UHGV virus genome: UHGV-0040703
Source: a virus
Strand: one strand, 5' to 3'
DNA: 12,371 bases
The notes beneath the pieces are model-generated. The model was not told where the DNA came from. It saw only the letters and a program-made list of their open reading frames with translations, and searched no databases. Each line of letters begins with the position of its first letter. Position 1 is the stretch's first letter. Shown in pieces: positions 1 to 12,371 of the stretch. Made by a program: the position numbers and the translations under genes.

Positions 1-57
1 AAAACACAACCCGCTACGGGGGAGACTTACCCGAAATCTGATTTATTCAACAAAGCC
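1..57. mobile_element. End (terminal inverted repeat plus adjacent interior) of an IS903-family insertion sequence; the element body lies left of the window
   Basis: Reverse complement of 40..57 is GGCTTTGTTGAATAAATC, the 18-bp terminal IR of IS903 as recalled from Tn903-derived vectors. Sequence beyond the IR differs from the Tn903 IRL end, so this is the other end or a close relative. The IR abuts an interrupted hsdS frame at 58. Confidence 0.6.
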
Positions 58-124
58 CCCCCAATGGCAACCACTCAACCTCAACCCCATCCAGCAATTT
101 TTCCAGATAACTCATCTCGCTCAT
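58..124 (-). pseudogene. hsdS: 5' remnant of a type I specificity subunit gene (hsdS), 22 codons, truncated by the IS end
   Basis: Minus-strand ATG at 124..122 overlaps the hsdM stop (ATGA) and encodes [22 protein letters not shown], which matches the recalled EcoR124-type HsdS N-terminus. The frame runs straight into the IS IR, then stops after 3 codons. Confidence 0.55.
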
Positions 125-1683
125 TTCTGCACCTCGCAGCCTTCAATTTCAGCCACAATCGCATCAATATCTTTGCGCAACTGGTCGATTTTGCTGACCG
201 TGGTTTTCAGTTCTGCATTCAACTCAGCGATATCGATAATTTCGCGAGTATCTTTCGCTTCCACATAGCTGCTCACTGACAGGTTATAGTCATTAGCGAC
301 AACGGTCTCAAACGCGACAGATTTCGCCAGATGAGCAACATCTTCCTTGCTGGCAAATACCTGCATAATCTGTTCGATATGGGCATCGGTCAGGATATTG
401 TTGTTAGTCTCTTTTTTGAATAGCTCGCTGGCGTCAATAAACTGAACGTTGGTATCGGTTTTATGTTTAGACAGCACCAGAATGTTTACGGCAATGGTGG
501 TGCCAAAGAACAGGTTCGGAGCCAGTGAAATCACGGTTTCGACATAGTTATTATCGACCAGATACTGACGGATTTTCTGCTCCGCGCCGCCACGGTAAAA
601 AATACCCGGGAAGCAGACAATCGCAGCACGACCTTTGGCCGAAAGATAGTTCAGCGCATGTAATACAAACGCAAAGTCAGCTTTGGATTTGGGGGCCAGA
701 ACGCCAGCCGGGGCAAAACGTTCATCGTTAATCAGCGTCGGGTCATCGCTGCCAATCCATTTCACCGAATACGGCGGGTTAGAAACGATGGCATCAAACG
801 GTTTTTCATCTCTGAAGTGCGGTTCAGTCAGCGTATTGCCCAGCTTGATATCAAACTTGTCGTAGTTGATGTTGTGCAAAAACATGTTCATACGCGCCAG
901 GTTATAGGTCGTATGGTTGATTTCCTGACCAAAAAAACCTTCTTCGATGATATGGTCATCAAACTGTTTTTTAGCCTGCAACAACAGCGAACCGGAGCCT
1001 GCTGCCGGGTCGTAGATTTTGTTAACGTGGGTCTGCCCGTGCATAGCCAGTTGTGCAATCAGCTTAGAGACGTGCTGCGGTGTAAAGAACTCGCCGCCTG
1101 ACTTACCGGCATTTGCCGCATAGTTAGAGATCAGGAACTCATAGGCATCACCGAACAGGTCAATCTGATGTTCGTTGAAGTCACCAAGTTTTAACCCTTC
1201 AACCCCTTTCAGAACCGCAGCCAGGCGGGCATTTTTATCTTTAACGGTGTTACCCAGGCGGTTACTGGTGGTATCGAAATCAGCAAACAAACCTTTGATG
1301 TCAGCTTCTGAAGGATAACCGTAAGCAGAACTTTCGATAGCAACGAAGATGCTGTTTAAATCTGCATTCAGTCTGTCATTGGTATTTGCTTTCGCAGCCA
1401 CGTTGCAGAAAAGCTGACTTGGGTAGATGAAGTAGCCTTTGGTTTTGATGGCATCGTCTTTAATGTCATCAGTAATTACGCTGTCATCCAGTTTCGCATA
1501 ACAGATACTGTCATCACCGGCTTCAATATAACTGGAAAAATTTTCGCTGATAAAACGGTAGAAAAGTGCGCCCAGAACGTATTGCTTAAAATCCCATCCA
1601 TCGACCGAACCCCTGACATCGTTAGCAATTTGCCAGATTTGACGATGAAGCTCTGCACGTTGTTGAATACTTGTCATTTTCAT
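121..1683 (-). CDS. hsdM: Type I restriction-modification DNA methyltransferase subunit HsdM (N6-adenine), EcoR124-like type IC family
   Basis: 520-aa ORF with AdoMet-binding motif [10 protein letters not shown] and catalytic NPPY (in SNPPYSVKW). N-terminus [25 protein letters not shown] matches the recalled R124-family HsdM. Its stop overlaps the hsdS start. Confidence 0.9.
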
Positions 1684-1822
1684 CCACTTATTTCAGGCTT
1701 ATGTAATTGGATGTGATTCTACAGCAACTTGGATGCTTTAGCAGTTCGGACATTAGGCTACGAATGACCTGCCTAGAGGTTTGTTAAGCCGCAAAGTGCT
1801 GGTGCTTTATGCCTGTGAAGTT

Positions 1823-1853
1823 TATAATTGTGTACACATAACGAGTACACGAG
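1823..1853 (+). promoter_or_regulatory. phd/doc promoter -10 and operator palindromes
   Basis: TATAAT at 1823..1828, immediately followed by the perfect 10-bp palindrome TGTGTACACA (1829..1838) and a second GTACAC site (1845..1850), just upstream of the phd start. Consistent with Phd/Doc autoregulation at palindromic operators. Confidence 0.55.
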
Positions 1854-1859
1854 GTGTTT

Positions 1860-2081
1860 ATGCAATCCATTAACTTCCGTACCGCGCGTGGCAACCTTTC
1901 TGAAGTGCTCAACAATGTTGAGGCCGGGGAAGAGGTTGAAATCACCCGCAGAGGCCGTGAGCCAGCAGTAATTGTCAGCAAGGCTACTTTCGAAGCCTAC
2001 AAAAAAGCGGCGCTGGATGCTGAATTTGCATCCCTGTTTGACACCCTGGACTCCACCAACAAGGAACTGGTTAACCGATAA
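1860..2081 (+). CDS. phd: Phd antitoxin (prevent host death), 73 aa
   Basis: Translation [49 protein letters not shown]... matches recalled P1 Phd. Its stop overlaps the doc start (TAATG). Confidence 0.95.
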
Positions 2082-2461
2082 TGAGGCATATATCACCGGA
2101 AGAACTTATTGCGCTTCATGATGCGAATATAAACCGCTACGGCGGCCTGCCGGGAATGTCAGATCCGGGTAGGGCAGAGGCCATTATCGGGAGAGTTCAG
2201 GCCAGAGTTGCCTACGAAGAGATCACCGACCTTTTCGAAGTCTCCGCCACCTACCTGGTGGCTACGGCGAGAGGGCATATATTCAATGATGCCAATAAGC
2301 GTACCGCGCTAAACAGTGCGCTGTTATTTCTACGCCGTAACGGGGTGCAGGTATTTGATTCACCTGAACTGGCAGACCTTACCGTAGGGGCTGCGACTGG
2401 CGAGATATCTGTATCTTCTGTCGCCGCCACGTTACGTAGATTGTATGGTTCTGCGGAGTAG
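2081..2461 (+). CDS. doc: Doc toxin (death on curing; Fic-fold kinase targeting EF-Tu), 126 aa
   Basis: 126-aa [28 protein letters not shown]... translationally coupled to phd; matches recalled P1 Doc. Confidence 0.95.
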
Positions 2462-2465
2462 ATTA

Positions 2466-2645
2466 ATGGCACGCAAATACAACAAATTGTCCCGTGAAGC
2501 GTTAAAGATGCTTCTTGATGGCGTGAGTCGCCGCAAGGTAAAGCAATACCTGGTTGGTAAGCAAATTGGTGCCAGGACCGCTATTGCTGTGTTATGCCGT
2601 CAGGAAATGGCTGTGCTTAAACAGAGAATGCCGGGCAGCAGATAA
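2466..2645 (+). CDS. pdcB: Small basic protein, probable HTH DNA-binding (post-doc gene pdcB-like), 59 aa
   Basis: ATG at 2466 preceded by GGAG. Position immediately downstream of doc matches the P1 gene order phd-doc-pdcB-pdcA-lpa. Identity is assigned by synteny, not by remembered sequence. Confidence 0.6.
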   Translation: MARKYNKLSREALKMLLDGVSRRKVKQYLVGKQIGARTAIAVLCRQEMAVLKQRMPGSR

Positions 2646-2672
2646 AGCCCAATCAGTGATTAAAGGTGTGAT

Positions 2673-3716
2673 GTGAAAGCCGTAATTACTCCCTTTGTAC
2701 AGAAAGAGCTTGGCCTCGCCACGTTCAAAGTGGATCAGGAGGTCAGAAAGCTGGTGGAGGCTGGCCGTAAATTTATTATGGAGCCGGTGCCGCGTGAGTT
2801 AATCGAGCACATGGAAGACGGCCTCGTTGTTACCGAGCAAACCATGGCAACAAATGAGGCGTTGCAGCCGTTTTTTAACAGCGATGAACTGTTTCGCCGT
2901 ATTGGTGGAATTGACGCGCTGGTGGCGTGGTTGCGTAGGAAAGAGGGTCAATGCCAGGCCGCAGATCGTAGTTGGTGTGACAACCATATTGTCCACGCTG
3001 AACGAGACAATAGCGCTGTGTTGTTGTGCTGGCATCACGATAACCATTACCGGATGCGTGGTTTTAATGAGCTGAAAGAAACGCTGCACAATAATCGCGT
3101 TAACTGGATACTGGATGTCGCCCGTCAGGAAATGGGCCTTTCAAATAGCCATGATTTAAGTATTCAGGAGCTGTGCTGGTGGGCTTTCATGCGCAACATG
3201 ATGCACCTGATGCCGGAAGAAGTCTGCCGCATATCAATAAATAAGATGAAGGCTACTCCGCAGGATAGCGGACCTCTGAAAGAGGCGGATATTCGCCCGT
3301 ATGACGATCGCGCTACAGCATATGTTCAGATGATGGAAGAACGCGCCGCGCCGATGCGTGCAAAAGTATGCCCTGTGGATGTTGACTCCGACCCAGGTAT
3401 GGCGCATTTCAAAATACCAAAACTTCAATCGCTAAAATTGCCCGAGTACATGGACTTTGTGGCTTCCCGTCCATGCTGTGGCTGTGGAGCTGCGGGAGCT
3501 GGCGCTCACATTACGCCTTATATCGTTCGTCATAGTCGATTATGCGCGCATGACATTTATGCTATTCCTCTGTGCCAGTCATGCCAGCGTGATATTGAGC
3601 GTGACCGCGATAATTGGGAGAAGACGCACGGCAGGCTGGCGATGCATCAACGATTGTTCTTTGATTACGCGCTTGGAGTCGGCGCTATCACAAGTCACTC
3701 GTCGAGCGTTAGATAA
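2673..3716 (+). CDS. pdcA: Post-doc protein PdcA-like, 347 aa, with two Cys/His-rich clusters (possible zinc-binding, HNH-like)
   Basis: GTG start at 2673 with upstream AAAGGTG. Long ORF with Cys/His clusters around residues 94-125 and 270-305. Assigned by synteny between doc and lpa. Confidence 0.65.
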
Positions 3717-3717
3717 A

Positions 3718-3760
3718 ATTGCTCTAATGTATTGCTATTTCTTTAATCAAGGGTATTATA
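3718..3760 (+). promoter_or_regulatory. C1 operator overlapping a sigma70-like promoter for lpa
   Basis: ATTGCTCTAATGTATTG (3718..3734) matches 14 of 17 positions of the asymmetric C1 operator consensus ATTGCTCTAATAAATTT. -35 TTGCTA (3732..3737), 16-17 bp spacer, -10 TATTAT/ATTATA (3754..3760). Confidence 0.6.
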
Positions 3761-3804
3761 TTCGTCGTTGATTAGTTGACATGGGCTAATCAGTAGGTGA
3801 CAGG

Positions 3805-4257
3805 ATGTTACTTAACTGGCAGGGACGCCACTTCATGGAAATAAATCACTCACGAATAACATCGTACGAGATTGCGGATTACATGATCCGCACTAAATCT
3901 CTTCTATCAGCGAAAGAACTCGCAGCAATTCTTGAAAAGGAATACCCGCATCTGGATGTCGATAAGCGCGATGTTTATCTGCGCTTAAAGGCTATCGCTG
4001 TGTCTAAGTATTCGTCTGTTTTGATTGATGACAGTACACGCCCACGTAGATTTCAGATCCACTCTCTGAATCCTGAATTCTTTCGCCGTAGCCGCGCTCC
4101 GCGCCGGTTTGATGAAAAACTCCAGAACGAACTCTATATGACGCAGGACGAAAAGGAACGCCGGGAGCACCAGCCTTGGGTAATGGCGCGTCAACTTTTC
4201 AATAAGGTGGCCCGTCAGCACCGTCATTACGGTAATGCCACATCCGCACGTATCTGA
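3805..4257 (+). CDS. lpa: Late promoter activator Lpa (gene 10 product), about 150 aa
   Basis: ORF MLLNWQGRHFMEINHSRITSYEIADYMIRTK... with AGGTGA SD before the ATG at 3805 (alternative in-frame ATG at 3835). Position between pdcA and pacA and an upstream C1 operator fit P1 lpa. Confidence 0.8.
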   Translation: MLLNWQGRHFMEINHSRITSYEIADYMIRTKSLLSAKELAAILEKEYPHLDVDKRDVYLRLKAIAVSKYSSVLIDDSTRPRRFQIHSLNPEFFRRSRAPRRFDEKLQNELYMTQDEKERREHQPWVMARQLFNKVARQHRHYGNATSARI

Positions 4258-4280
4258 TTGATTGCTTGCCCGTTCCGGGC

Positions 4281-4330
4281 CTTTTGACATGTGACTTTCG
4301 TTACCCTCGCGTCAAAAAGAGTTTTATACG
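4281..4330 (+). promoter_or_regulatory. Candidate promoter region upstream of pacA (possibly an Lpa-dependent late promoter)
   Basis: Perfect TTGACA at 4284..4289; imperfect inverted repeat CTTTTGAC (4281..4288) / GTCAAAAA (4311..4318); TTATAC at 4324..4329 about 15 nt before the pacA SD (AAAGGAAG). Confidence 0.3.
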
Positions 4331-4343
4331 AAAGGAAGCATAA

Positions 4344-5537
4344 GTGACCTGGGACGATCACAAGAAGAATTTTGCTCGCCTGGCGCGAGATGGTGGTTAC
4401 ACCATCGCACAATATGCCGCCGAGTTTAATCTCAACCCAAACACCGCACGTCGTTATCTCCGTGCATTCAAAGAAGACACCGGAACAGCGGACAGCCGTA
4501 AGCCAAATAAGCCTGTCAGAAAACCACTAAAAAGCATGATCATTGATCACGCTAATGATCAACGTGCAAGTGATCACATTGTGGCTGAAATGGCTGAAAA
4601 ACAAAGAGTTAATGCTGTTGTCAGTGCCGCAGTCGAGAACGCTAAGCGCCAAAATAAGCGCATAAATGATCGTTCTGATGATCATGACGTGATCACCCGC
4701 GCCCACCGGACCTTACGTGATCGCCTGGAACGCGACACCCTGGATGATGATGGTGAACGCTTTGAATTCGAAGCTGGCGATTACCTGATAGATAACGTTG
4801 AAGCGCGGAAGGCCGCGCGCGCTATGTTGCGTCGATCCGGGGCCGATGTTCTGGAAACCACTCTTCTGGAAAAGTCTCTTTCTCATCTCCTTATGCTGGA
4901 GAACGCCAGGGATACGTGTATTCGCCTGGTGCAGGAAATGCGCGATCAGCAAAAAGACGATGATGAAGGTACTCCGCCTGAATACCGTATCGCGAGCATG
5001 CTAAACAGCTGTTCCGCGCAGATAAGCAGTCTGATCAACACCATTTACAGCATCCGGAATAACTATCGAAAAGAAAGCCGGGAGGCGGAAAAGCACGCTT
5101 TGTCTATGGGGCAAGCTGGCATTGTTAAGCTGGCATACGAACGAAAGCGTGAAAATAACTGGTCAGTGCTGGAAGCAGCTGAATTCATCGAGGCGCATGG
5201 CGGGAAAGTGCCGCCCCTGATGCTGGAGCAAATCAAAGCCGATCTGCGTGCTCCTAAGACCAATACCGATGATGAGGAAAGGCAAACAGCCGTCGGTGGC
5301 CCTTCTCTTGAAGATCTGGACAAAGTTGCGCGAGAACGGGCCGCCAACCGCCGCGCCGATGCCGCATTGTGGATTGAGCAGCGTAGGGAAGAAATCGCCG
5401 ATATCGTTGATACAGGCGGTTATGGAGATGTTGATACTGAAGGTGTATCAAACGACCCATGGCTGGAACAAGACCTGGACGAAGACGAGGAGGAAGACGA
5501 AGAAGTTACCCGCAAGCTATACGGGGATGATGATTAA
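4344..5537 (+). CDS. pacA: Packaging protein PacA (pacase/terminase small subunit), 397 aa
   Basis: GTG start with AAAGGAAG SD; translation [39 protein letters not shown]... The pac hexamer repeats lie inside its 5' portion, as in P1. Confidence 0.9.
4544..4733 (+). repeat. P1 pac site: seven TGATCA/TGATCG hexamers (each with a Dam GATC) in clusters of 3 and 4
   Basis: Hexamers at 4544, 4556, 4571 and at 4667, 4679, 4690, 4728. The 3+4 arrangement flanking the cleavage region matches the described P1 pac site. Confidence 0.85.
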
Positions 5538-7021
5538 TGGCCAGAAGTTGCGTAACGGATCCACGTTGGCGCGAGTTGGTGGCGCTATATCGTTATGACT
5601 GGATTGCGGCCGCTGATGTTTTGTTCGGCAAAACACCTACCTGGCAGCAGGATCTGATTATTGAGTCTGTGCAGGAACAGGGTAGCAAGACATCTGTTTC
5701 GTCTGGTCACGGTACCGGGAAATCAGACATGACTTCTATCATGATCATGTTGTTCATAATCATGTATCCCGGTGCCCGTGCCATTATCGTTGCGAACAAA
5801 ATTCAGCAGGTAATGACCGGTATATTCAAGTACATCAAGATAAACTGGGCTACGGCCACCAGCCGTTTTCCGTGGCTTGCTGATTATTTTGTTCTGACAG
5901 AAACCGCTTTTTATGAAGTTACTGGTAAAGGTGTATGGACTGTAGTACCGAAGGGCTTTCGTCTGGGAAGTGAATAAGCTCTCGCAGGTGAACACGCAGA
6001 TCATCTTCTGTATATTATCGATGAAGCCTCCGGTGTCAGTGATAGAGCTTTCGGTATCATCACCGGTGCTCTTACCGGACAGGATAACCGCATCTTATTG
6101 CTGTCACAGCCTACACGCCCAAGCGGCTATTTCTACGATACTCACCATAAACTGGCCAAGCGTCCTGGTAACCCTGATGGCGTTTATACGGCGATCACGC
6201 TTAACAGTGAGGAATCACCGCTGGTAACGCCAGCATTTATCAAAATGAAGCTGGCGGAGTACGGCGGGCGTGATAACCCTATGTACATGATTAAGGTACG
6301 CGGACTATTCCCTAAATCACAGGATGGCTTCCTTCTTGGACGTGATGAGGTTGAACGTGCGACGCGGCGGAAAGTCAAGATTGCCAAAGGATGGGGCTGG
6401 CTTGCATGTGTGGACGTTGCTGGTGGTACGGGACGGGATAAGTCCGTTATCAATATCATGATGGTGTCCGGCCAGAGAAATAAACGCCGTGTAATCAACT
6501 ATCGAATGCTGGAATACACAGACGTTACAGAAACGCAGCTTGCCGCCAAAATTTTCGCAGAATGTAATCCTGAGCGATTCCCAAATATCACCATAGCGAT
6601 AGACGGCGATGGCCTGGGTAAAGCAACGGCGGATCTGATGTACGAGTATTATGGTATTACCGTACAGCGTATACGCTGGGGTAAAAAGATGCATAGCCGT
6701 GAAGATAAGAGCCTGTACTTTGATAAACGTGCTTATGCCAACGTTCAAGCCGCAGAGGCCGTAAAATCTGGTCGTATGAGACTGGATAAGGGTAATGAAA
6801 CTATTGAGGAAGCGTCGAAAATCCCTGTAGGGATTAACTCCGCGGGTCAATGGAAAGTGATGAGTAAGGAGGATATGAAGAAAAAACTCAACCTGCACTC
6901 ACCAGACCATTGGGATACATATTGTTTCGCTATGCTGGCGGATTATGTTCCTCAGGATGAAGTGCTTAGCGTCGAAGACGAAGCGCAGGTTGATGAAGCT
7001 CTGGCATGGCTTAATGAATGA
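5537..7021 (+). pseudogene. pacB: pacB (terminase large subunit), interrupted by an in-frame TAA at 5975..5977
   Basis: One frame from 5537 to 7021 gives 494 codons, but codon 147 is TAA (..GFRLGSE*). The N-terminal fragment carries Walker A-like SGHGTGKS; the same frame resumes after the stop with [20 protein letters not shown] (Walker B). The ORF track splits it into 5537..5977 and 6098..7021. Confidence 0.75.
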
Positions 7022-7024
7022 ACA

Positions 7025-7067
7025 TTTGCTCTAATGAATTGTGTTTTTTAACTACCGATGTTACATT
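7025..7067 (+). promoter_or_regulatory. C1 operator-like 17-mer overlapping a candidate sigma70 promoter reading rightward
   Basis: TTTGCTCTAATGAATTG (7025..7041) matches 14 of 17 consensus positions. -35 TTGTGT (7039..7044), 17-bp spacer, -10 TACATT (7062..7067). Confidence 0.5.
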
Positions 7068-7173
7068 GAACCTGACCTCTTGCGCCTTGAGGCATTTTCG
7101 GTTTATGCTTATCAGGCACCTCATTAAAACGGGTGCCGGGATTGAGACCCCGGATAATGCAAAAGGCGACACA

Positions 7174-7195
7174 GACGCCAAAAGCGTCTTTTTTT
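7174..7195 (+). terminator. Rho-independent terminator (plus-strand)
   Basis: Stem AGACGC/GCGTCT around loop CAAAA, followed by T7 (7189..7195). Confidence 0.6.
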
Positions 7196-7221
7196 GTGTC
7201 ATGCCATCGCACAGCCATACG

Positions 7222-7340
7222 TAGCGTTTAGCTCAGAGATCAATGGTAGTGCTGGCTGGGCTGCCGAAAGGCAGGCCGGTTCCCTTTTGCGCCGGTAGTC
7301 TCAACCCAGTCAGTGCTACCGCCATTGAGATTGAGACCTC
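7222..7340 (+). ncRNA. Candidate structured regulatory RNA (c4-type antisense RNA candidate) upstream of the small ORF/antirepressor pair
   Basis: Long imperfect helix 7241..7260 with 7304..7326; internal GNRA hairpin CTGCC-GAAA-GGCAG (7261..7274); tRNA-like TAGCTCAG at 7229..7236. Two segments complement the downstream translation-initiation region: CCTTTTGC (7284..7291) with the SD GCAAAAGG (7362..7369), and CAATGG (7241..7246) with CCATTG (7376..7381) at the start codon. Confidence 0.4.
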
Positions 7341-7380
7341 ACGCGGTAGCTCCTTAAATTAGCAAAAGGAGGCTGCCATT

Positions 7381-7602
7381 GTGGCTACTATCCCTACCCC
7401 TGCTCATTCTGAATTTATCTGGCGCTTTTACTCCTGCCAAAAACGTCACTATCACTTCGTTATTGCACCGACAGAAGATGAGGCACGTTCTCAGCTTCCG
7501 GATGCTCCCTGTATTTTCTCTGCCCGCTTTTCTACCGATTCGCGCAATTCTCTCAGTTACTGGTGCCTCCCTATTAACGCTTCTGCTCAGGAGGGACTAT
7601 GA
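7381..7602 (+). CDS. Small protein, 73 codons, translationally coupled to the downstream antirepressor-like gene (icd-like position in an immI-type operon)
   Basis: GTG at 7381 eight nt after AAGGAGG (7366..7372); its stop overlaps the next ATG (ATGA at 7599..7602). An overlapping TTG-initiated frame (7379..7624) is the alternative. Confidence 0.45.
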   Translation: MATIPTPAHSEFIWRFYSCQKRHYHFVIAPTEDEARSQLPDAPCIFSARFSTDSRNSLSYWCLPINASAQEGL

Positions 7603-8711
7603 GAACGTCATTAGTCACCCGTGAAGAGATGATCGAGGCAATTGAACAGCACACTGCCTGTATCAGTACCAGGGATATACCGGGCGTTATTGCCAACTAC
7701 TTCATGATCACCAAACAACTTTACCGGAGAAAGGACAAACACGCGGTTCACCGCATTCTGCTAACCGATATCCGTGAATACCTGCTCGAACAGGGTCATC
7801 TGAATTACGCAACCGTCGCAGCCGAAGCACGCAAGGAGGCACACAGAATGAAAGCAACTAACGTTAAATCAGAAAAAATTTATGCACCTTCAGTTCAGGA
7901 ATCGGAACTGGTGGTTGTTCAGAATCAGCCGGATGAAATTCCCGTTCTGGAATGGCAGGGAGTACGTGTCGTGACAACCGAAACTCTTGCTAGAGGGTAT
8001 GGGGTCGATGAAGCCAATATTCGCAACAATTTGTCTCGCAACCTTGACCGCTTTGAAGAAGGTAAGCATTACTTTCTTCTAACTGGTTTAAAATTAAGAG
8101 AATTTAAGAACAGAGTAACCGGAAGTTACTCTGTTGGTAAGAACGCCAGAAGCCTTACACTCTGGACAGAGCGCGGCGCTGCACGCATGTCTAAGATCGT
8201 GGACACAAATGAAGCATGGGCATTCTTTGAAAAACTGGAAGACAGCTACTTCCGGCAAAAAGAACAGCAACCGGTTGCAATCCCCCAAACATTACCAGAA
8301 GCCCTACGCCTGGCTGCCGAACTGGCTGAACAAAAGCAGCTTCTGGAACAGAAAGCCCACCAGCTAAATCAGCAGCTGGTAGCCGCCGCTCCTAAGGTCG
8401 ATTTTGCCGACCGGGTATCAGTAGCTAAAGGGATCCTGATTGGGAATTTTGCAAAGGTTGTTGGACTTAAGCAAAACGCGCTGTTTGCCTGGTTACGGGA
8501 GAACGGCATCCTGATAGCGTCCGGTGGACGTAAAAATGTGCCGTTCCAGCAGTACATCAACGCGGGGTATTTCACGGTGAAAGAAGTGGTGCTGGATGAT
8601 GAAGATGGCTACCAGATACGGTTGACGCCTCAATTAACGGGTAAAGGCCAGCAGTGGTTGACGCGTAAACTGCTCGATGCTGGCTTGTTAAAACCGGTGG
8701 CGGCTGAATAA
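7599..8711 (+). CDS. ant: Antirepressor-like protein: ORF6N/KilA-N-type domain plus C-terminal KilAC domain, 370 aa, with nested in-frame start at 7848 (287 aa); Ant1/Ant2-type arrangement
   Basis: AGGAGG SD before the ATG at 7599; second strong SD AAGGAGG (7833..7839) before the in-frame ATG at 7848. Middle region VLEWQGVRVVTTETLARGYGVDEANI... resembles the ORF6N/Bro-N fold; C-terminal LPEALRLAAELAEQKQ...FADRVSVAKGILIGNFAKVVGLKQNALFAWLRENGIL...YINAGYFTVKEV resembles the KilAC signature. Confidence 0.65.
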   Translation: MRTSLVTREEMIEAIEQHTACISTRDIPGVIANYFMITKQLYRRKDKHAVHRILLTDIREYLLEQGHLNYATVAAEARKEAHRMKATNVKSEKIYAPSVQESELVVVQNQPDEIPVLEWQGVRVVTTETLARGYGVDEANIRNNLSRNLDRFEEGKHYFLLTGLKLREFKNRVTGSYSVGKNARSLTLWTERGAARMSKIVDTNEAWAFFEKLEDSYFRQKEQQPVAIPQTLPEALRLAAELAEQKQLLEQKAHQLNQQLVAAAPKVDFADRVSVAKGILIGNFAKVVGLKQNALFAWLRENGILIASGGRKNVPFQQYINAGYFTVKEVVLDDEDGYQIRLTPQLTGKGQQWLTRKLLDAGLLKPVAAE

Positions 8712-8718
8712 TGGAAGA

Positions 8719-8740
8719 ATGCCCGGTTGATGCCGGGCAT
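8719..8740. terminator. Hairpin between the convergent antirepressor-like gene and c1 (probable bidirectional terminator)
   Basis: 8-bp stem ATGCCCGG/CCGGGCAT with a 6-nt loop, flanked by AATTTATT on the plus strand and TCTTCCATTATT on the minus strand; lies between the stop codons at 8709..8711 and 8744..8746. Confidence 0.5.
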
Positions 8741-8743
8741 AAT

Positions 8744-9595
8744 TTATTGCGCGCTTTCGGGGTTGTCGTTTACTGGCTGCCCCTTCTTGGTTTTACGGCT
8801 GCGCGTAACTGATGCGGCTGACTTAACCTTTTTCTCTTCGCGAGTGATGGCAATTTGTTTTTTTACATTTTCAATATCTGCCAGGCGATATATTTTTGCT
8901 TGCGGCCAGCGGTCGCAGATGATCGGTTCTATGGAGTCATAAAGGCTAAATTTTGCTTTTTCGAATTCACCGTTGATGATAATTCCATCACGGAGAGTTT
9001 CATCGCAGATAAACACGCCACACAGTGGCACATGGTAACTAACTGATTTACCATCATTGTAGTTAGGGCTACTGGAAATGTAGTGGACGCGCAGCATTGT
9101 TTCGCTAAAGCCGTGTACGCGCATACGGAATTTTTCATCCTCCGGGTACTGCTTCATTAGCTCTTTTGTTGCTTCCAGGTTCTCTATGTATTTCGCACTG
9201 TGCTCATTGATCCCCGCGCTTTTTTGGATGCGAATATCCTTATCAATCAGATGAATAATGCGGCCAGCGGTCATGTTGACGCTGTTCACAGCCTCTGTCT
9301 GATAAGTTGTAACCTTACGCACACCGCGAAGGATGTTAGGCACTGGATATAAAATAGTCTTTGGGATATTGAGGTCTGGGTACTGTTCCAGTTCCCGCGC
9401 CATTAAAGTCCATTTATCAATTTCAGCCTGAATGCTGTCAGTTTCTTTGAACGGTAGAACGACAACCGGGCGTACAGGACGACCGTCGCTGGCTGTATCA
9501 ACGTGTTGGGCGCGTGCAACAGCTTTTTTTAGAAAGAGATCCCTGAAGCTGACGAACTCCTGGTACAGTTGTTCGCCGTAGACATAATTTATCAT
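8744..9595 (-). CDS. c1: C1 repressor of lysis (primary immunity repressor), 283 aa
   Basis: Translation MINYVYGEQLYQEFVSFRDLFLKKAVARAQHVDTASDGRPVRPVVVLPFKETDSIQAEIDKWTL... matches recalled P1 C1; 283 aa as in P1. Confidence 0.95.
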   Translation of the reverse strand: MINYVYGEQLYQEFVSFRDLFLKKAVARAQHVDTASDGRPVRPVVVLPFKETDSIQAEIDKWTLMARELEQYPDLNIPKTILYPVPNILRGVRKVTTYQTEAVNSVNMTAGRIIHLIDKDIRIQKSAGINEHSAKYIENLEATKELMKQYPEDEKFRMRVHGFSETMLRVHYISSSPNYNDGKSVSYHVPLCGVFICDETLRDGIIINGEFEKAKFSLYDSIEPIICDRWPQAKIYRLADIENVKKQIAITREEKKVKSAASVTRSRKTKKGQPVNDNPESAQ

Positions 9596-9689
9596 TGATC
9601 CTCCTCCAGAATTGACATGGCCAATAACGCCCGGCTGAGAAAACCGGTCATTACTGACCTATATTATAGAGGGATCAAACAAAAATAAT

Positions 9690-9706
9690 AGATTTATTAG
9701 TGCATT
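9690..9706 (-). promoter_or_regulatory. C1 operator-like site between coi and c1
   Basis: AGATTTATTAGTGCATT matches 14 of 17 positions of the reverse-complement consensus AAATTTATTAGAGCAAT. Confidence 0.4.
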
Positions 9707-9915
9707 TATTGTGAGTCTAACTGGTTAGTTGCCATGAGATATTCGATTGTGTCAGTGAGGTCATCCAGGTCGTCTTGGGTGATGCGGTACTCCTGATTGG
9801 ATATCTTTGAGTAGTGTTCAGCAATGGCGCGGGCAGCGTCGGTTTCGGCAGGGTCTACAGATAAAGCGTTAGAGCAATGTCTAACGTCGTCGATGGTTGG
9901 TTGAATGAAAGCCAT
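9706..9915 (-). CDS. coi: Coi, C1 inactivator, 69 aa
   Basis: 69-aa ORF MAFIQPTIDDVRHCSNALSVDPAETDAARAIAEHYSK... immediately upstream of c1 on the same strand, as in P1 immC. Confidence 0.85.
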   Translation of the reverse strand: MAFIQPTIDDVRHCSNALSVDPAETDAARAIAEHYSKISNQEYRITQDDLDDLTDTIEYLMATNQLDSQ

Positions 9916-10153
9916 AATTATGCCTCACTGTATTGACAACACAGAGCCTGAAGCTCTGACCTACTGTTTCACCCATGATCCATGCTGGGGTAATCTAACA
10001 ACATTGCGCTGTGTGTAAGATGAGCAATGCATAGCTGTAATGCCGTTGTATAAGGTTTCCCTGTTTGCTCATTTCCTTCTGAGCCGCTCTACAACGCTGA
10101 AGACACATTAAATAGTGAATCCAAAGTCGTATTACGTAACGGCGGCAAAACTA

Positions 10154-10170
10154 TAATTTATTAGAGCAAT
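10154..10170 (-). promoter_or_regulatory. C1 operator (Op99-type), minus orientation
   Basis: TAATTTATTAGAGCAAT matches 16 of 17 positions of the reverse-complement consensus. Confidence 0.65.
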
Positions 10171-10236
10171 TGTCAAACAACTATGAAAAACAATCCAGTT
10201 TTTGGCTGGTGGAGTGGGATTTTTCTCTCAAAATTT

Positions 10237-10253
10237 ATTGCTCTAATAATTCT
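10237..10253 (+). promoter_or_regulatory. C1 operator (Op99-type), plus orientation
   Basis: ATTGCTCTAATAATTCT matches 15 of 17 consensus positions. Confidence 0.65.
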
Positions 10254-10296
10254 TGATTTTTATGCGCAGCTGGACGTAAACTCCTCTTCGGACCTA

Positions 10297-10330
10297 ATAA
10301 CTTCGTATAGCATACATTATACGAAGTTAT
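10297..10330. other. loxP site for Cre recombination (13-bp inverted arms, 8-bp spacer)
   Basis: Exact ATAACTTCGTATA-GCATACAT-TATACGAAGTTAT. Confidence 0.98.
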
Positions 10331-10349
10331 CTTAAGGGTTATTGAATAT

Positions 10350-10479
10350 GATCAATTTACCTGTAAATCCATACAGTTCAATACCTTAGCAGGTCAAATA
10401 GTGATCATTTGATCAAGGTTGCGCTACGTAAAATCTGTGAAAAGTTGGCGGTGTTAGTCCTACAGATTTCGCGTAGCGC
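10350..10479 (+). promoter_or_regulatory. cre upstream regulatory region: Dam GATC cluster and an 18-bp imperfect inverted repeat
   Basis: GATC at 10350, 10403 and 10411 (TGATCATTTGATCA); inverted repeat GCGCTACGTAAAATCTGT (10421..10438) / ACAGATTTCGCGTAGCGC (10462..10479) with a 23-nt spacer. Dam-sensitive cre promoters have been described for P1. Confidence 0.4.
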
Positions 10480-10511
10480 ACTTAGCACCACCAATCAATC
10501 AGAGGTGAAAA

Positions 10512-10733
10512 ATGGGATATTCAACTGCTAAAGTGTCCACTCATCTTGAGCTTGAGAAAAACCGTGGTTACTGGCGGGCAAAAGGGTTTGATCGTGATAG
10601 TTGCCAACTGTCATTATCGCGCGGTGAAGAGAAAATAGAACGCACGCGCGGTCGCTGGCGTTTCTATGACGAGAACCATAAACAGGTAAAGGCAGAGCCG
10701 ATCCTGTACACTTTACTTAAAACCATCATCTGA
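10512..10733 (+). CDS. Hypothetical small basic protein (73 aa) immediately upstream of cre
   Basis: ATG at 10512 four nt after GAGGTG; its stop is 7 nt before the cre ATG. No recognised family; I do not recall it as an annotated P1 gene. Confidence 0.3.
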   Translation: MGYSTAKVSTHLELEKNRGYWRAKGFDRDSCQLSLSRGEEKIERTRGRWRFYDENHKQVKAEPILYTLLKTII

Positions 10734-10740
10734 GTGTTAA

Positions 10741-11772
10741 ATGTCCAATTTACTGACCGTACACCAAAATTTGCCTGCATTACCGGTCGATGCAACGAGT
10801 GATGAGGTTCGCAAGAACCTGATGGACATGTTCAGGGATCGCCAGGCGTTTTCTGAGCATACCTGGAAAATGCTTCTGTCCGTTTGCCGGTCGTGGGCGG
10901 CATGGTGCAAGTTGAATAACCGGAAGTGGTTTCCCGCAGAACCTGAAGATGTTCGCGATTATCTTCTATATCTTCAGGCGCGCGGTCTGGCAGTGAAAAC
11001 TATCCAGCAACATTTGGGCCAGCTAAATATGCTTCATCGTCGGTCCGGGCTGCCACGACCAAGTGACAGCAATGCTGTTTCACTGGTCATGCGACGGATC
11101 CGAAAAGAAAACGTTGATGCCGGTGAGCGTGCAAAACAGGCGCTGGCGTTCGAACGCACTGATTTCGACCAGGTTCGTTCACTCATGGAAAATAGCGATC
11201 GCTGCCAGGATATACGTAATCTGGCATTTCTGGGGATTGCTTATAACACCCTGTTACGTATAGCCGAAATTGCCAGGATCAGAGTTAAAGATATCTCACG
11301 TACTGACGGTGGGAGAATGTTAATCCATATTGGCAGAACGAAAACGCTGGTTAGCACCGCTGGTGTAGAGAAGGCACTTAGTCTGGGGGTAACTAAACTG
11401 GTTGAGCGATGGATTTCTGTCTCTGGTGTGGCTGATGATCCGAATAACTACTTGTTTTGCCGTGTCAGAAAAAATGGTGTTGCCGCGCCATCTGCCACCA
11501 GCCAGCTATCAACTCGCGCCCTGGAAGGGATTTTTGAAGCAACTCACCGATTGATTTACGGGGCTAAGGATGACTCTGGCCAGAGGTACCTGGCCTGGTC
11601 TGGACACAGTGCCCGTGTCGGAGCCGCGCGAGATATGGCCCGCGCCGGAGTTTCAATACCGGAGATCATGCAAGCTGGTGGCTGGACCAACGTAAATATT
11701 GTCATGAACTATATCCGTAACCTGGATAGTGAAACAGGGGCAATGGTGCGCCTGCTGGAAGATGGCGATTAG
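10741..11772 (+). CDS. cre: Cre tyrosine site-specific recombinase, 343 aa
   Basis: Translation MSNLLTVHQNLPALPVDATSDEVRKNLMDMFRDRQAFSEHTWKMLLSVCRSWAAWCKLNNRKWFPAEPEDVRDYLLYLQARGLAVKTIQQHLGQLNMLHRRSGLPRPSDSNAVSLVMRRIRKENVDAGERAKQALAFERTDFDQVRSLMENSDRCQDIRNLAFLGIAYNTLLRIAEIARIRVKDISRTDGGRMLIHIGRTKTLVSTAGVEKALSLGVTKLVERWISVSGVADDPNNYLFCRVRKNGVAAPSATSQLSTRALEGIFEATHRLIYGAKDDSGQRYLAWSGHSARVGAARDMARAGVSIPEIMQAGGWTNVNIVMNYIRNLDSETGAMVRLLEDGD is P1 Cre. Confidence 0.98.
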   Translation: MSNLLTVHQNLPALPVDATSDEVRKNLMDMFRDRQAFSEHTWKMLLSVCRSWAAWCKLNNRKWFPAEPEDVRDYLLYLQARGLAVKTIQQHLGQLNMLHRRSGLPRPSDSNAVSLVMRRIRKENVDAGERAKQALAFERTDFDQVRSLMENSDRCQDIRNLAFLGIAYNTLLRIAEIARIRVKDISRTDGGRMLIHIGRTKTLVSTAGVEKALSLGVTKLVERWISVSGVADDPNNYLFCRVRKNGVAAPSATSQLSTRALEGIFEATHRLIYGAKDDSGQRYLAWSGHSARVGAARDMARAGVSIPEIMQAGGWTNVNIVMNYIRNLDSETGAMVRLLEDGD

Positions 11773-11822
11773 CCATTAACGCGTAAATGATTGTTCTAAT
11801 TCTTTGATATTTATGGTGACAT

Positions 11823-12134
11823 ATGAGAAAGGATTTCAACATCGACGGAAAATATGTAGTGCTGTCTGTAAGCACTAATATTCAGTCGCCAGCCGTCATT
11901 GTCACTGTAAAGCTGAGCGATAGAATGCCTGATATTGACTCAATATCCGTTGCGTTCCCTGTCAAAAGTATGCGTGGTGCTGAACATTTCGTGATGAATG
12001 CCACCGAGGAAGAAGCACGGCGCGGTTTTGCTAAAGTAGTGTCTGACTTTGGCGAACTCTTGGATAAGGTTAACAATGTCCTTTCAATCAGTTCAGCAAG
12101 GTCCAAAGCGTTAACAGCTTCCATGATGAAATAA
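11823..12134 (+). CDS. cra: Cre-associated small protein (cra-like), 103 aa
   Basis: ORF directly downstream of cre with GGTGA before the ATG; assigned by synteny with P1 (cre then cra). Confidence 0.55.
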   Translation: MRKDFNIDGKYVVLSVSTNIQSPAVIVTVKLSDRMPDIDSISVAFPVKSMRGAEHFVMNATEEEARRGFAKVVSDFGELLDKVNNVLSISSARSKALTASMMK

Positions 12135-12158
12135 AAAAAGCCTGGCAAGGAACCAGGC
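12133..12158 (-). terminator. Rho-independent terminator oriented for minus-strand transcripts
   Basis: Stem GCCTGG/CCAGGC around loop CAAGGAA, preceded on the plus strand by A7, which is a U7 tract after the hairpin on the minus strand. Confidence 0.55.
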
Positions 12159-12261
12159 TGCACAAAAGAGCGGGTTTGTGTTCCGCATCCAATCAATCAG
12201 AAAGGAGTATAGCACATAGATACTAAAGTGAAAAAATGTGACTGAAGATAAACAATATAAC

Positions 12262-12285
12262 ATTGCTCTAATTGATTGTTATAAT
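12262..12285 (+). promoter_or_regulatory. C1 operator-like site with adjacent -10 element (Op2-type position after cre/cra)
   Basis: ATTGCTCTAATTGATTG (12262..12278) matches 14 of 17 consensus positions; TATAAT at 12280..12285. Confidence 0.5.
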
Positions 12286-12316
12286 TGGGCCGTGGCGTTA
12301 GTCAACTACGAAGACG

Positions 12317-12371
12317 GGTAGTGACTCCAACTTACTGATAGTGTTTTATGTTCAGATAATGCCCGATGACC
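12317..12371. mobile_element. IS1 terminal inverted repeat and adjacent interior (IRR-type end); element continues beyond the window
   Basis: GGTAGTGACTCCAACTTACTGATAGTGTTTTATGTTCAGATAATGCCCGATGAC matches the recalled IS1 end GGTAATGACTCCAACTTATTGATAGTGTTTTATGTTCAGATAATGCCCGATGAC with 2 mismatches. Confidence 0.8.

Follow-up and report, generated by a model that had tools for sequence, protein, structure and literature searches.

The large terminase gene pacB in the analyzed DNA, a window of 12,371 nt from the virus genome UHGV-0040703, is interrupted by an in-frame ochre codon, and it is very probable that this reflects a recent pacB null allele of single origin in a lineage of P1-like phage-plasmids, which persists as a plasmid. 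The element is a P1-like phage-plasmid of the phiW39 type from E. coli, in which one G-to-T transversion would have changed GAA into TAA, and the mutation would have arisen once, and would then have been inherited and spread.

The interrupted pacB frame and its surroundings

The translation of positions 5537..7021 (plus strand) gave 494 codons followed by the natural TGA, with TAA at 5975..5977 (codon 147) as the sole internal stop, which agrees with the original prediction of a single 494-codon frame with TAA at this codon. The length of this frame is the same as that of P1 pacB, which is 1485 nt (91722..93206 of NC_005856). When the 1485 nt were shuffled 2000 times, the shuffled sequences contained on average 27, and never fewer than 10, in-frame stops, while the actual frame contains one. 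This result excludes a chance open frame, and shows that pacB is a genuine gene carrying one lesion. The 347 codons downstream of the stop are fully open and almost unchanged. The PacB encoded here differs from phiW39 PacB only by V128I and E147*, and, apart from the stop, it differs by two residues from the protein of the isolated phage JL22.

To determine the wild-type codon, an alignment to P1 pacB had been proposed together with the original prediction, and this comparison gave glutamate, which is encoded by GAG in P1, by GAA in genes of the phiW39/JL22/RCS47 type, and also by GAA in pEA16-1_1. Hence, the alignment with relatives defines the ochre codon at 5975..5977 (plus strand) as G5975T, which changes Glu147 to a stop (E147*). 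Across 36 diverse PacB homologues (46–84% identity), Glu147 does not vary, and it is part of the motif G-N-E-E-x-L-A-G-E-H. A control probe with the G base detected 360 PLSDB plasmids with the same pacB type, all of which have Glu at codon 147. A stop at this codon was found in 0 of these 360 plasmids, in 0 complete E. coli genomes, and in 0 of the 36 homologues. The original prediction had also considered that reference PacB proteins could end naturally at this position, but all intact relatives have Glu there. The stop is also not conserved among functional homologues, as it would be in the case of programmed readthrough.

The gene directly upstream, pacA (4344..5537, plus strand), which encodes the DNA-recognition terminase subunit, is intact, with 397 codons and a 1-base overlap with the pacB start, and it matched phrog_1711 terminase with E=2e-204. 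The pac site is located within pacA (4537..4695, plus strand), and the comparison with the P1 annotation showed that it consists of four plus three TGATCA/G (Dam) hexamers at positions 4537, 4544, 4556, and 4571, and at 4667, 4679, and 4690, spaced as they are in P1. Intact are also c1, cre, and phd/doc, while neither a tRNA nor a suppressor gene was found in the window. The gene order, phd-doc-pdcB-lpa-pacA-pacB-(icd/ant)-c1-coi-...-cre, as judged from the open reading frames and from Pfam matches in identical carriers, is that of a P1-like phage-plasmid (Punavirus), and, as in RCS47, icd/ant is inserted between pacB and c1 (PMC6906374). The window is 97.8% identical over 99% of its length to NZ_CP129281.1 and others. 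Its left boundary (1..57) is the end of an element that cuts hsdS, and which, from its terminal sequence, we take to be of the IS903 type; in one carrier contig (L005) this end is contiguous with the 3′ end of a DDE_Tnp_1 transposase. The right boundary (12316..12371) is an IS1 end, identical to the end adjoining the DDE_Tnp_IS1 gene in the carriers L012/L020.

Domains of PacB and products of the interrupted frame

To place PacB among terminases, the intact allele was compared with profiles and structures. It matched the PHROG profile phrog_2, "terminase large subunit", with E=3e-40, and a Pfam search with PacB and its pieces returned no significant family. The searches with phmmer and hmmsearch against PDB sequences gave marginal matches only, to the C-terminus of Sf6 gp2, with the profile match covering residues 424–467, and therefore a fold search was required to place the domains of PacB. 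The AF2 model of intact PacB had a pLDDT of 88.4, and Foldseek matched it to Sf6 gp2 with E=7e-22, and also to T4 gp17, D6E, and HK97 TerL. The ATPase domain of the model compared to the P74-26 TerL ATPase with TM values of 0.65–0.70, while the nuclease domain compared to the Sf6 gp2 nuclease (5c10) with a TM of 0.68, and also matched the nuclease domains of E217, G20c, and P22. As judged from its sequence and predicted fold, PacB is a TerL protein with an N-terminal ASCE ATPase domain and a C-terminal RNase H-like nuclease domain.

The Walker A motif, or P-loop, SGHGTGKS (residues 56–63; 5702..5725, plus strand) is located upstream of the stop. Its residues S56, G57, H58, G59, G61, K62, and S63 are invariant in the homologue alignment, and in the model it follows the strand 51–56 and begins the helix 62–76. 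The Walker B motif LLYIIDEAS (residues 157–165; 6005..6031, plus strand) is located in the same frame, between the stop and the first canonical restart codon; D162, E163, and S165 are invariant in the alignment, and the model has a strand at 157–162. The DNA still encodes both Walker motifs and the C-motif SQPT, which are invariant among the 36 homologues, and the stop separates Walker A from the rest. Hence, the claim that the stop lies between Walker A and Walker B and splits the ATPase was borne out.

A TerL protein is one uninterrupted polypeptide with both domains, while here it is broken by TAA at codon 147, and the listing of open reading frames cuts pacB in two, 5537..5977 (146 aa) and 6098..7021 (307 aa, TTG start). 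Translation would stop after 146 residues, with the P-loop kept, but with Walker B, the C-motif, the lid, and the entire nuclease domain gone. The N-terminal fragment (5537..5974, plus strand) is translatable and contains Walker A only. The residual open reading frame (6098..7021, plus strand) begins at the first canonical in-frame start, and it contains the C-motif SQPT and the nuclease domain without Walker A or Walker B. On 57 contigs it was called as a putative protein of 307 aa. According to the list of in-frame codons, TTG 6098 is 22 codons beyond the end of Walker B. Since this first canonical restart lies past Walker B, residues 148–187, including the catalytic D162 and E163, are in neither piece. 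GTG 5970 and ATG 6021 were also considered as restart codons, and were rejected because both are out of frame. These data indicate that pacB of the window is a pseudogene or null allele, which would not encode a functional member of the TerL family.

Carriers of the ochre allele and alternative explanations

The exact 146-aa product was found on 62 contigs, in 118 index blocks, and the host was E. coli wherever it was named. Direct reading confirmed the TAA codon in 11 distinct contigs, which came from NCBI, ENA, Logan, and IMG/VR (L005/L011, L006–L010, L012/L020, L013, L018, L019, and L021). They include NCBI drafts from 2014, SRA runs assembled in Logan, and metagenome assemblies from ENA, which differ in projects, years, and assemblers. 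Among the carriers are GCA_000627965.1 and the sequencing runs SRR11849109 and ERR3357240. The named carriers are wild E. coli isolates, such as strain 1-182-04_S3_C2 and pathogen-surveillance accessions, and there are also metagenome contigs among the carriers. All of them are draft contigs of at most 28 kb, bounded by IS copies. An exact 33-mer with TAA matched one IMG/VR contig, while it gave 0 matches in the GTDB representative genomes and 0 in the JGI metagenome contigs. A 55-nt TAA probe, designed so that each of its 28-mers covers the mutated base, and paired with the control probe containing G, was run with megablast and gave 0 matches both in PLSDB and in the complete E. coli genomes. 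Two other contigs were rejected as carriers: in L014 an IS2 insertion yields TAG, and L015 simply stops at position 5974.

The carriers share one nearly identical pacA-pacB haplotype, with 0–2 SNPs across both genes, while in non-carriers pacB by itself already has at least nine differences from them (10 with the mutated base counted), which points to a single origin of the TAA allele. The fact that, the stop aside, its PacB is two residues away from that of JL22 and one from that of phiW39 suggests that the allele is recent. Among the carriers, at least five different contexts of IS elements and recombination were seen, and their flanking SNP patches also differ. The presence of one allele in these varied contexts indicates that the spread into them came after the mutation; part of this spread may be the clonal expansion of one host lineage.

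The original prediction had offered three origins of the stop, a real inactivating mutation, a laboratory nonsense allele, and a sequencing error, and only the real mutation is supported by the data. Neither the 360 finished plasmids of the same type nor any complete E. coli genome has the allele, and the carriers are all drafts, which could suggest that the true base is G (GAA), and that T is an artefact of one assembly. The chance of this is practically negligible, because a private sequencing error is excluded by the recurrence of TAA in 11 distinct contigs, which come from independent projects and assemblers and are not alike in their flanking SNP patches and IS insertions, and a substitution is also atypical for homopolymer or indel errors. 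Amber mutants in P1 pacA and pacB are present in the literature (PMC10695390), and the allele could by analogy be an ochre mutant made for genetics and grown on a suppressor host. This origin is extremely improbable, because the phiW39-type background has 81% nucleotide identity to laboratory P1 pacB, and the named carriers are wild E. coli isolates, with metagenome contigs in addition. Moreover, classical P1 mutants are amber and not ochre, the flanks contain natural IS903, IS1, and IS5 insertions, and a suppressor tRNA is absent from the window. The open and nearly unchanged 347 downstream codons, and the calling of the 307-aa frame, would be consistent with pacB still working, either by readthrough of TAA, or as a two-piece terminase consisting of the 146-aa N-terminal fragment and a reinitiated C-terminal fragment. 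However, the preservation of the downstream frame is equally well explained by the youth of the allele (0–2 SNPs in pacAB), the residues 148–187 with D162 and E163 are missing from both pieces, and no intact relative is split at this position, with Glu in 36 of 36 homologues and in 360 of 360 plasmids. TAA is the most efficient terminator in E. coli, and we know of no recoding signal for it; hence, a working pacB is very unlikely.

Two further explanations accept the loss of PacB. The mutated T could be what remains, as a footprint of one base, of an IS2 element that was once inserted exactly here and was lost by slippage between GTGAA/TA at the left junction and GTGAA/GA at the right junction, which is a variant of the origin compatible with the preferred explanation. 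In L014 the left end of IS2 (TAGACTGG...) abuts position 5974, and its first base T corresponds to the mutated position; the break of the L015 contig is also at 5974, and IS3-family insertions cluster at codons 128–146. On the other hand, the IS2 allele is on another pacB haplotype, 7–9 synonymous differences away, and a look-up by exact protein favors any insertion that creates a stop here, which is an ascertainment bias. This route also needs extension from a mismatched primer, so that a plain transversion is simpler, and a footprint appears quite unlikely. The IS2 left and right junction patterns gave 0 matches in IMG/VR, and a 63-nt IS2 junction probe matched IS2 copies or pacB separately in PLSDB, but never the junction. 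It is also unlikely, although slightly less so, that the loss of PacB reflects more than decay, i.e., that the truncation was selected because the Walker-A-only fragment interferes with the terminase of superinfecting P1-like phages by poisoning or titrating it, or because the element is a satellite dependent on the PacB of a helper. The presence of the allele in at least five structural contexts and on 62 contigs, the intact pacA and pac site, and the frequency of independent pacB disruptions in E. coli are consistent with selection, and a dominant-negative effect of the 146-aa fragment on incoming terminases would, if true, explain the spread of the allele into many IS and recombination contexts. 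However, a stable, addictive plasmid that carries the allele along in successful hosts would explain this spread equally well, and the other pacB lesions, which are IS insertions, deletions, and frameshifts at varied positions, resemble undirected decay without convergence on one product.

Consequences for the element and comparison with known systems

The preferred explanation, a null allele created by a single transversion, has consequences for the life cycle of the element. A 146-aa product without Walker B, the C-motif, the lid, and the nuclease domain would not be a functional large terminase, and the element's own packaging, that is, pac cleavage and headful packaging by its own products, should fail. 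In P1, pacB is essential, with an efficiency of plating below 1.2e-7 under CRISPRi, and amber mutants have been reported (PMC10695390), while pac cleavage requires both PacA and PacB (PMC10028697). The packaging defect that the original prediction had expected is thus supported by the assignment of PacB as TerL by profile and predicted fold, and by its essential role in P1 (PMC10695390). A functional plaque-forming P1-like phage has its essential lytic genes intact, and here pacB is interrupted; the head, tail, and lysis genes of the element, like its replicon, lie beyond the 12.4-kb window, and pacB may or may not be its only lesion. The element would persist because its plasmid-state functions, which are phd/doc addiction, the C1 repressor, Cre/lox, and the replicon located outside the window, have no need of PacB, and it could possibly be packaged in trans by a PacB-proficient helper. 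Loss-of-function mutations are known to turn phage-plasmids into plasmids (PMC12977533), as in the example of pJIE250-3 (PMC6906374), and the allele is in this sense ordinary phage decay, a known kind of event. It provides a single-nucleotide, dated-looking example of the first step from a phage-plasmid to a plain plasmid: an essential packaging gene has been inactivated, no damage is visible in the remainder of the packaging module, in the pac site, or in the maintenance genes, and the lineage has nevertheless been recovered from dozens of wild E. coli samples. When draft P1-like contigs show a "split terminase", this can thus be a genuine allele and not an error, and the presence of P1 marker genes is not equivalent to an inducible, transducing phage.

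Among known systems, the same gene follows pacA in the Punavirus members phiW39, JL22, RCS47, and SJ46, with 98.4–98.9% nucleotide identity (98.4–99.3% over 1485 nt when many E. coli plasmids are included), but the four phages have uninterrupted pacB genes of 494 codons with Glu147, while here codon 147 is TAA. Other pacB disruptions in P1-like elements of E. coli inactivate the same gene by different mechanisms and on independent haplotypes: IS2 after codon 130 (P0003, 155 contigs), an IS3-family insertion after codon 128 (P0010), IS2 after codon 146 (L014), frameshifts in AP023436.1 (L016), and a deletion of lpa-pacA-5′ pacB (L017). PacB is likewise lost in the pacB amber mutants and knock-down of P1, where this abolishes pac cleavage and plaques (PMC10695390, PMC10028697), but those mutants are laboratory alleles in P1, while the allele described here is a natural ochre in a phiW39-type element, circulating in wild E. 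coli. The defective P1-like plasmids, such as pJIE250-3 and those described by Pfeifer and Rocha, have lost lytic function and kept maintenance, as would be the case here (PMC6906374, PMC12977533). However, the described defective plasmids arose mostly by deletions, IS or transposon insertions, and module replacement, while in the phage genes of this window the lesion is one point mutation, and the packaging module is otherwise intact.

The pacB reading frame and its internal stop codon

Translation confirmed that a single frame of 494 codons, closed by its natural TGA, spans 5537..7021 on the + strand, and that its sole internal stop is the TAA at codon 147 (5975..5977). As the original prediction had placed them, the P-loop SGHGTGKS (aa 56-63) is encoded 5′ of this stop and Walker B, LLYIIDEAS (aa 157-165), 3′ of it. 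The frame is equal in length to annotated P1 pacB (1485 nt). Shuffled versions of the 1485 nt contained about 27 in-frame stops, and at least 10 in each of 2000 trials; 5537..7021 is therefore a true gene carrying a single lesion. The alignment to P1 pacB, which had been proposed for identifying the wild-type codon, also included pEA16-1_1, phiW39 and JL22; codon 147 is GAA in these relatives and GAG (Glu) in P1, and therefore the lesion is G5975T, converting Glu147 to a stop. Apart from the stop, the encoded PacB differs from that of phiW39 by one residue (V128I) and from that of the isolated phage JL22 by two. In an alignment of 36 full-length homologues (46-84% identity), Glu146 and Glu147 were invariant (36/36) within the motif G-N-E-E-x-L-A-G-E-H. 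This motif (aa 144-153, 5966-5995), located just before Walker B, is invariant in PacB homologues from Escherichia through Vibrio, Photobacterium and Shewanella.

Although no Pfam model recognizes PacB, its assignment as a large terminase is firm, based on profile, homologue alignment and predicted fold. The PHROG "terminase large subunit" profile matched residues 33-474 of the intact allele (E=3e-40), and a Foldseek search with the structure predicted for intact PacB, without the stop (mean pLDDT 88.4), returned the large terminases of Sf6 (gp2, E=7e-22), T4 (gp17), D6E and HK97. The N-terminal half of the model resembled the ATPase domain of P74-26 (TM 0.65-0.70), and the C-terminal half the nuclease domain of Sf6 (TM 0.68). 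In the model, strand 51-56 is followed by the P-loop, residue 147 belongs to a short helix (146-149) that comes after strand 135-140 and before the Walker B strand (157-162), and the C-motif strand is 185-190.

The window pacB shares 98.4-99.3% identity with its counterparts in phiW39, JL22, RCS47, SJ46 and several hundred phage-plasmids of E. coli, Salmonella and Klebsiella, and 81% with those of P1 and P7. Positions 71..12316 are colinear with many P1-like plasmids at 96-98% identity, in the order hsdM, phd, doc, pdcB (DUF968), lpa, pacA, pacB, icd-like, ant, c1, coi, cre. The stretch between pacB and c1 (7018-8711) holds a 68-aa ORF, the icd-like gene and the ant (ORF6N/ANT) antirepressor; the icd-like/ant part is absent from P1, but present in RCS47 and pTZ20_1P. 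This stretch is mosaic among contigs carrying the TAA, with an ash-family gene present or absent.

Distribution and origin of the TAA allele

The TAA allele is widespread in draft data and missing from the finished sequences searched. A 55-nt megablast probe, in which every 28-mer contained the mutated base, had no match in PLSDB or 5,426 complete E. coli genomes, while its G version matched 360 plasmids. The exact TAA 33-mer was not found in GTDB representative genomes or JGI metagenome contigs; one IMG/VR contig matched. This contig equals the window from 1532 to 9998, and the two are distinguished only by a patch of 16 SNPs in hsdM and by an IS5-type insertion following 9998. A look-up by exact sequence placed the 146-aa product in 118 index blocks and on 62 contigs, with E. 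coli as the named sources (e.g., strain 1-182-04_S3_C2 and several pathogen-surveillance accessions). The TAA itself was read in 11 distinct contigs (L005=L011, L006, L007, L008, L009, L010, L012/L020, L013, L018, L019 and L021), whose sources are draft assemblies at NCBI (four), Logan assemblies of SRA runs (five) and metagenome assemblies at ENA (two).

The original prediction had allowed for a real inactivating mutation, a laboratory nonsense allele or a sequencing error. Because the same TAA recurs in these 11 contigs, a private sequencing error is excluded, and a laboratory origin is very unlikely, since pacB has a background of the phiW39 type, not that of P1, and the carrier samples are natural; a real mutation is what stands. 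The TAA could also be imagined as a one-base footprint of IS2 excision, by slippage between GTGAA|TA and GTGAA|GA. Indeed, in contig L014 (8433-8468) the IS2 left end (TAGACTGGCCCCC... / TAGACTGGCCCCCTGAATCTCC...) adjoins the equivalent of 5974 (5974|5975), its first base T occupying the mutated position to give TAG and the same 146-aa product, and contig L015 breaks off at 5974. However, the pacB haplotype of L014 and L015 has 7-9 synonymous differences from the window, and exact-protein look-up selects for events yielding this product. For these reasons the match is probably coincidence or a local IS2 preference, and the excision footprint is improbable and unsupported.

The TAA allele arose once and then spread. 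Each carrier has 0-2 SNPs relative to the window across pacA-pacB (2.7 kb), while the nearest non-carriers differ at no fewer than nine sites in pacB alone (10 with the mutated base). Beyond pacAB the carriers are mosaic, with SNP patches in hsdM, at 7000-7500 and past 10000, which look more like recombination tracts than point mutation. L005/L011, which otherwise matches the window, departs from it at 16 positions, and every one of these lies in a patch of about 600 nt in hsdM (938-1531); other carriers have patches at 500-1600, 2000-3000, 7000-7500 and beyond 10000. Carrier structures also differ: hsdS is intact in L018; an IS903-type element lies at position 58 in the window, L006, L009, L019 and L021; L005 and L010 additionally have an IS5-type end after 9998, and the window an IS1 at 12316; in L012 an IS1 sits at 3648 and is followed by a P1-type ref region. 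The allele is thus older than several IS insertions and recombination events, and yet young by the substitution clock, since the 347 downstream codons are open and essentially unchanged.

Both window ends are IS termini, the left (1-57) of IS903 type and the right (12316-12371) of IS1, so that the window has the look of an entire short-read contig with a repeat at either end. The IS903-type copy cuts hsdS directly after hsdM (121..1683, - strand), and therefore this sub-lineage has also lost a working type I R-M system, while L018 keeps hsdS. In the carrier L019 (7592-9553; ENA metagenome scaffold ROBE23-1) ant encodes 253 instead of 370 aa and c1 is split (219 + 54 aa), which reflects either continued decay in this lineage or an error in the metagenome assembly.

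Consequences for packaging

The only product that the sequence can be relied on to yield is a 146-aa N-terminal fragment containing the P-loop alone. The first in-frame ATG, GTG or TTG after the stop is TTG 6098, 22 codons past the end of Walker B, so a reinitiated piece would be without residues 148-187, among them the catalytic D162/E163. GTG 5970 and ATG 6021, considered as restart codons, are both out of frame. A search for tRNA genes within the window found none. In P1, plaque formation requires pacB (EOP <1.2e-7 under CRISPRi; amber mutants are reported) (PMC10695390), and pac cleavage is the joint work of PacA and PacB (PMC10028697); self-packaging would therefore be lost, which supports the packaging defect originally proposed. 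The element is most likely packaging-defective and maintained as a plasmid. The intact pacA (397 codons), pac site (4+3 TGATCA/G hexamers with P1-like spacing), lpa, c1, coi, cre, phd and doc fit stable plasmid-prophage maintenance, and in principle the element could be packaged in trans given a supply of PacB. It is highly improbable that the allele is selectively useful, through helper-dependent mobilization or a dominant-negative N-terminal fragment. The split of the large terminase gene is real and the original reading of it is supported: it is a natural, recent null allele (E147*) of single origin in a phiW39-type P1-like phage-plasmid.

Comparison with other pacB lesions

The pacB gene is hit repeatedly in databases, and the TAA allele is one more lesion of this class. 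Others include IS2 read-through after codon 130 (155 contigs, one of 2.37 Mb), an IS3-family insertion after codon 128 and a further truncation after codon 136. In the 118-kb plasmid AP023436.1 (L016, 8250-10924) both pacA and pacB are frameshifted by indels, while in BFTY01000058.1 (L017, 9712-10001) a deletion of lpa, pacA and the pacB 5′ end joins doc to mid-pacB (window 2504 to 5851); these two P1-like plasmids of E. coli have the same 307-aa C-terminal ORF as the window, but it arises there from different lesions. Contiguous pacB is missing from 59 of the 617 matching PLSDB plasmids. Four truncated proteins (P0003, P0004, P0010 and P0018) represent independent IS3-family/IS2 read-through at codons 128-137 (about 5918-5947), all in the roughly 20 codons that precede codon 147; insertions may be locally favoured here, in a sample biased by cluster membership. 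The TAA allele stands out only as a clean point mutation with a wide distribution. Decay of a P1-like phage-plasmid to a plasmid by loss of function has already been described for pJIE250-3 (PMC6906374), and the same course is discussed in PMC12977533.
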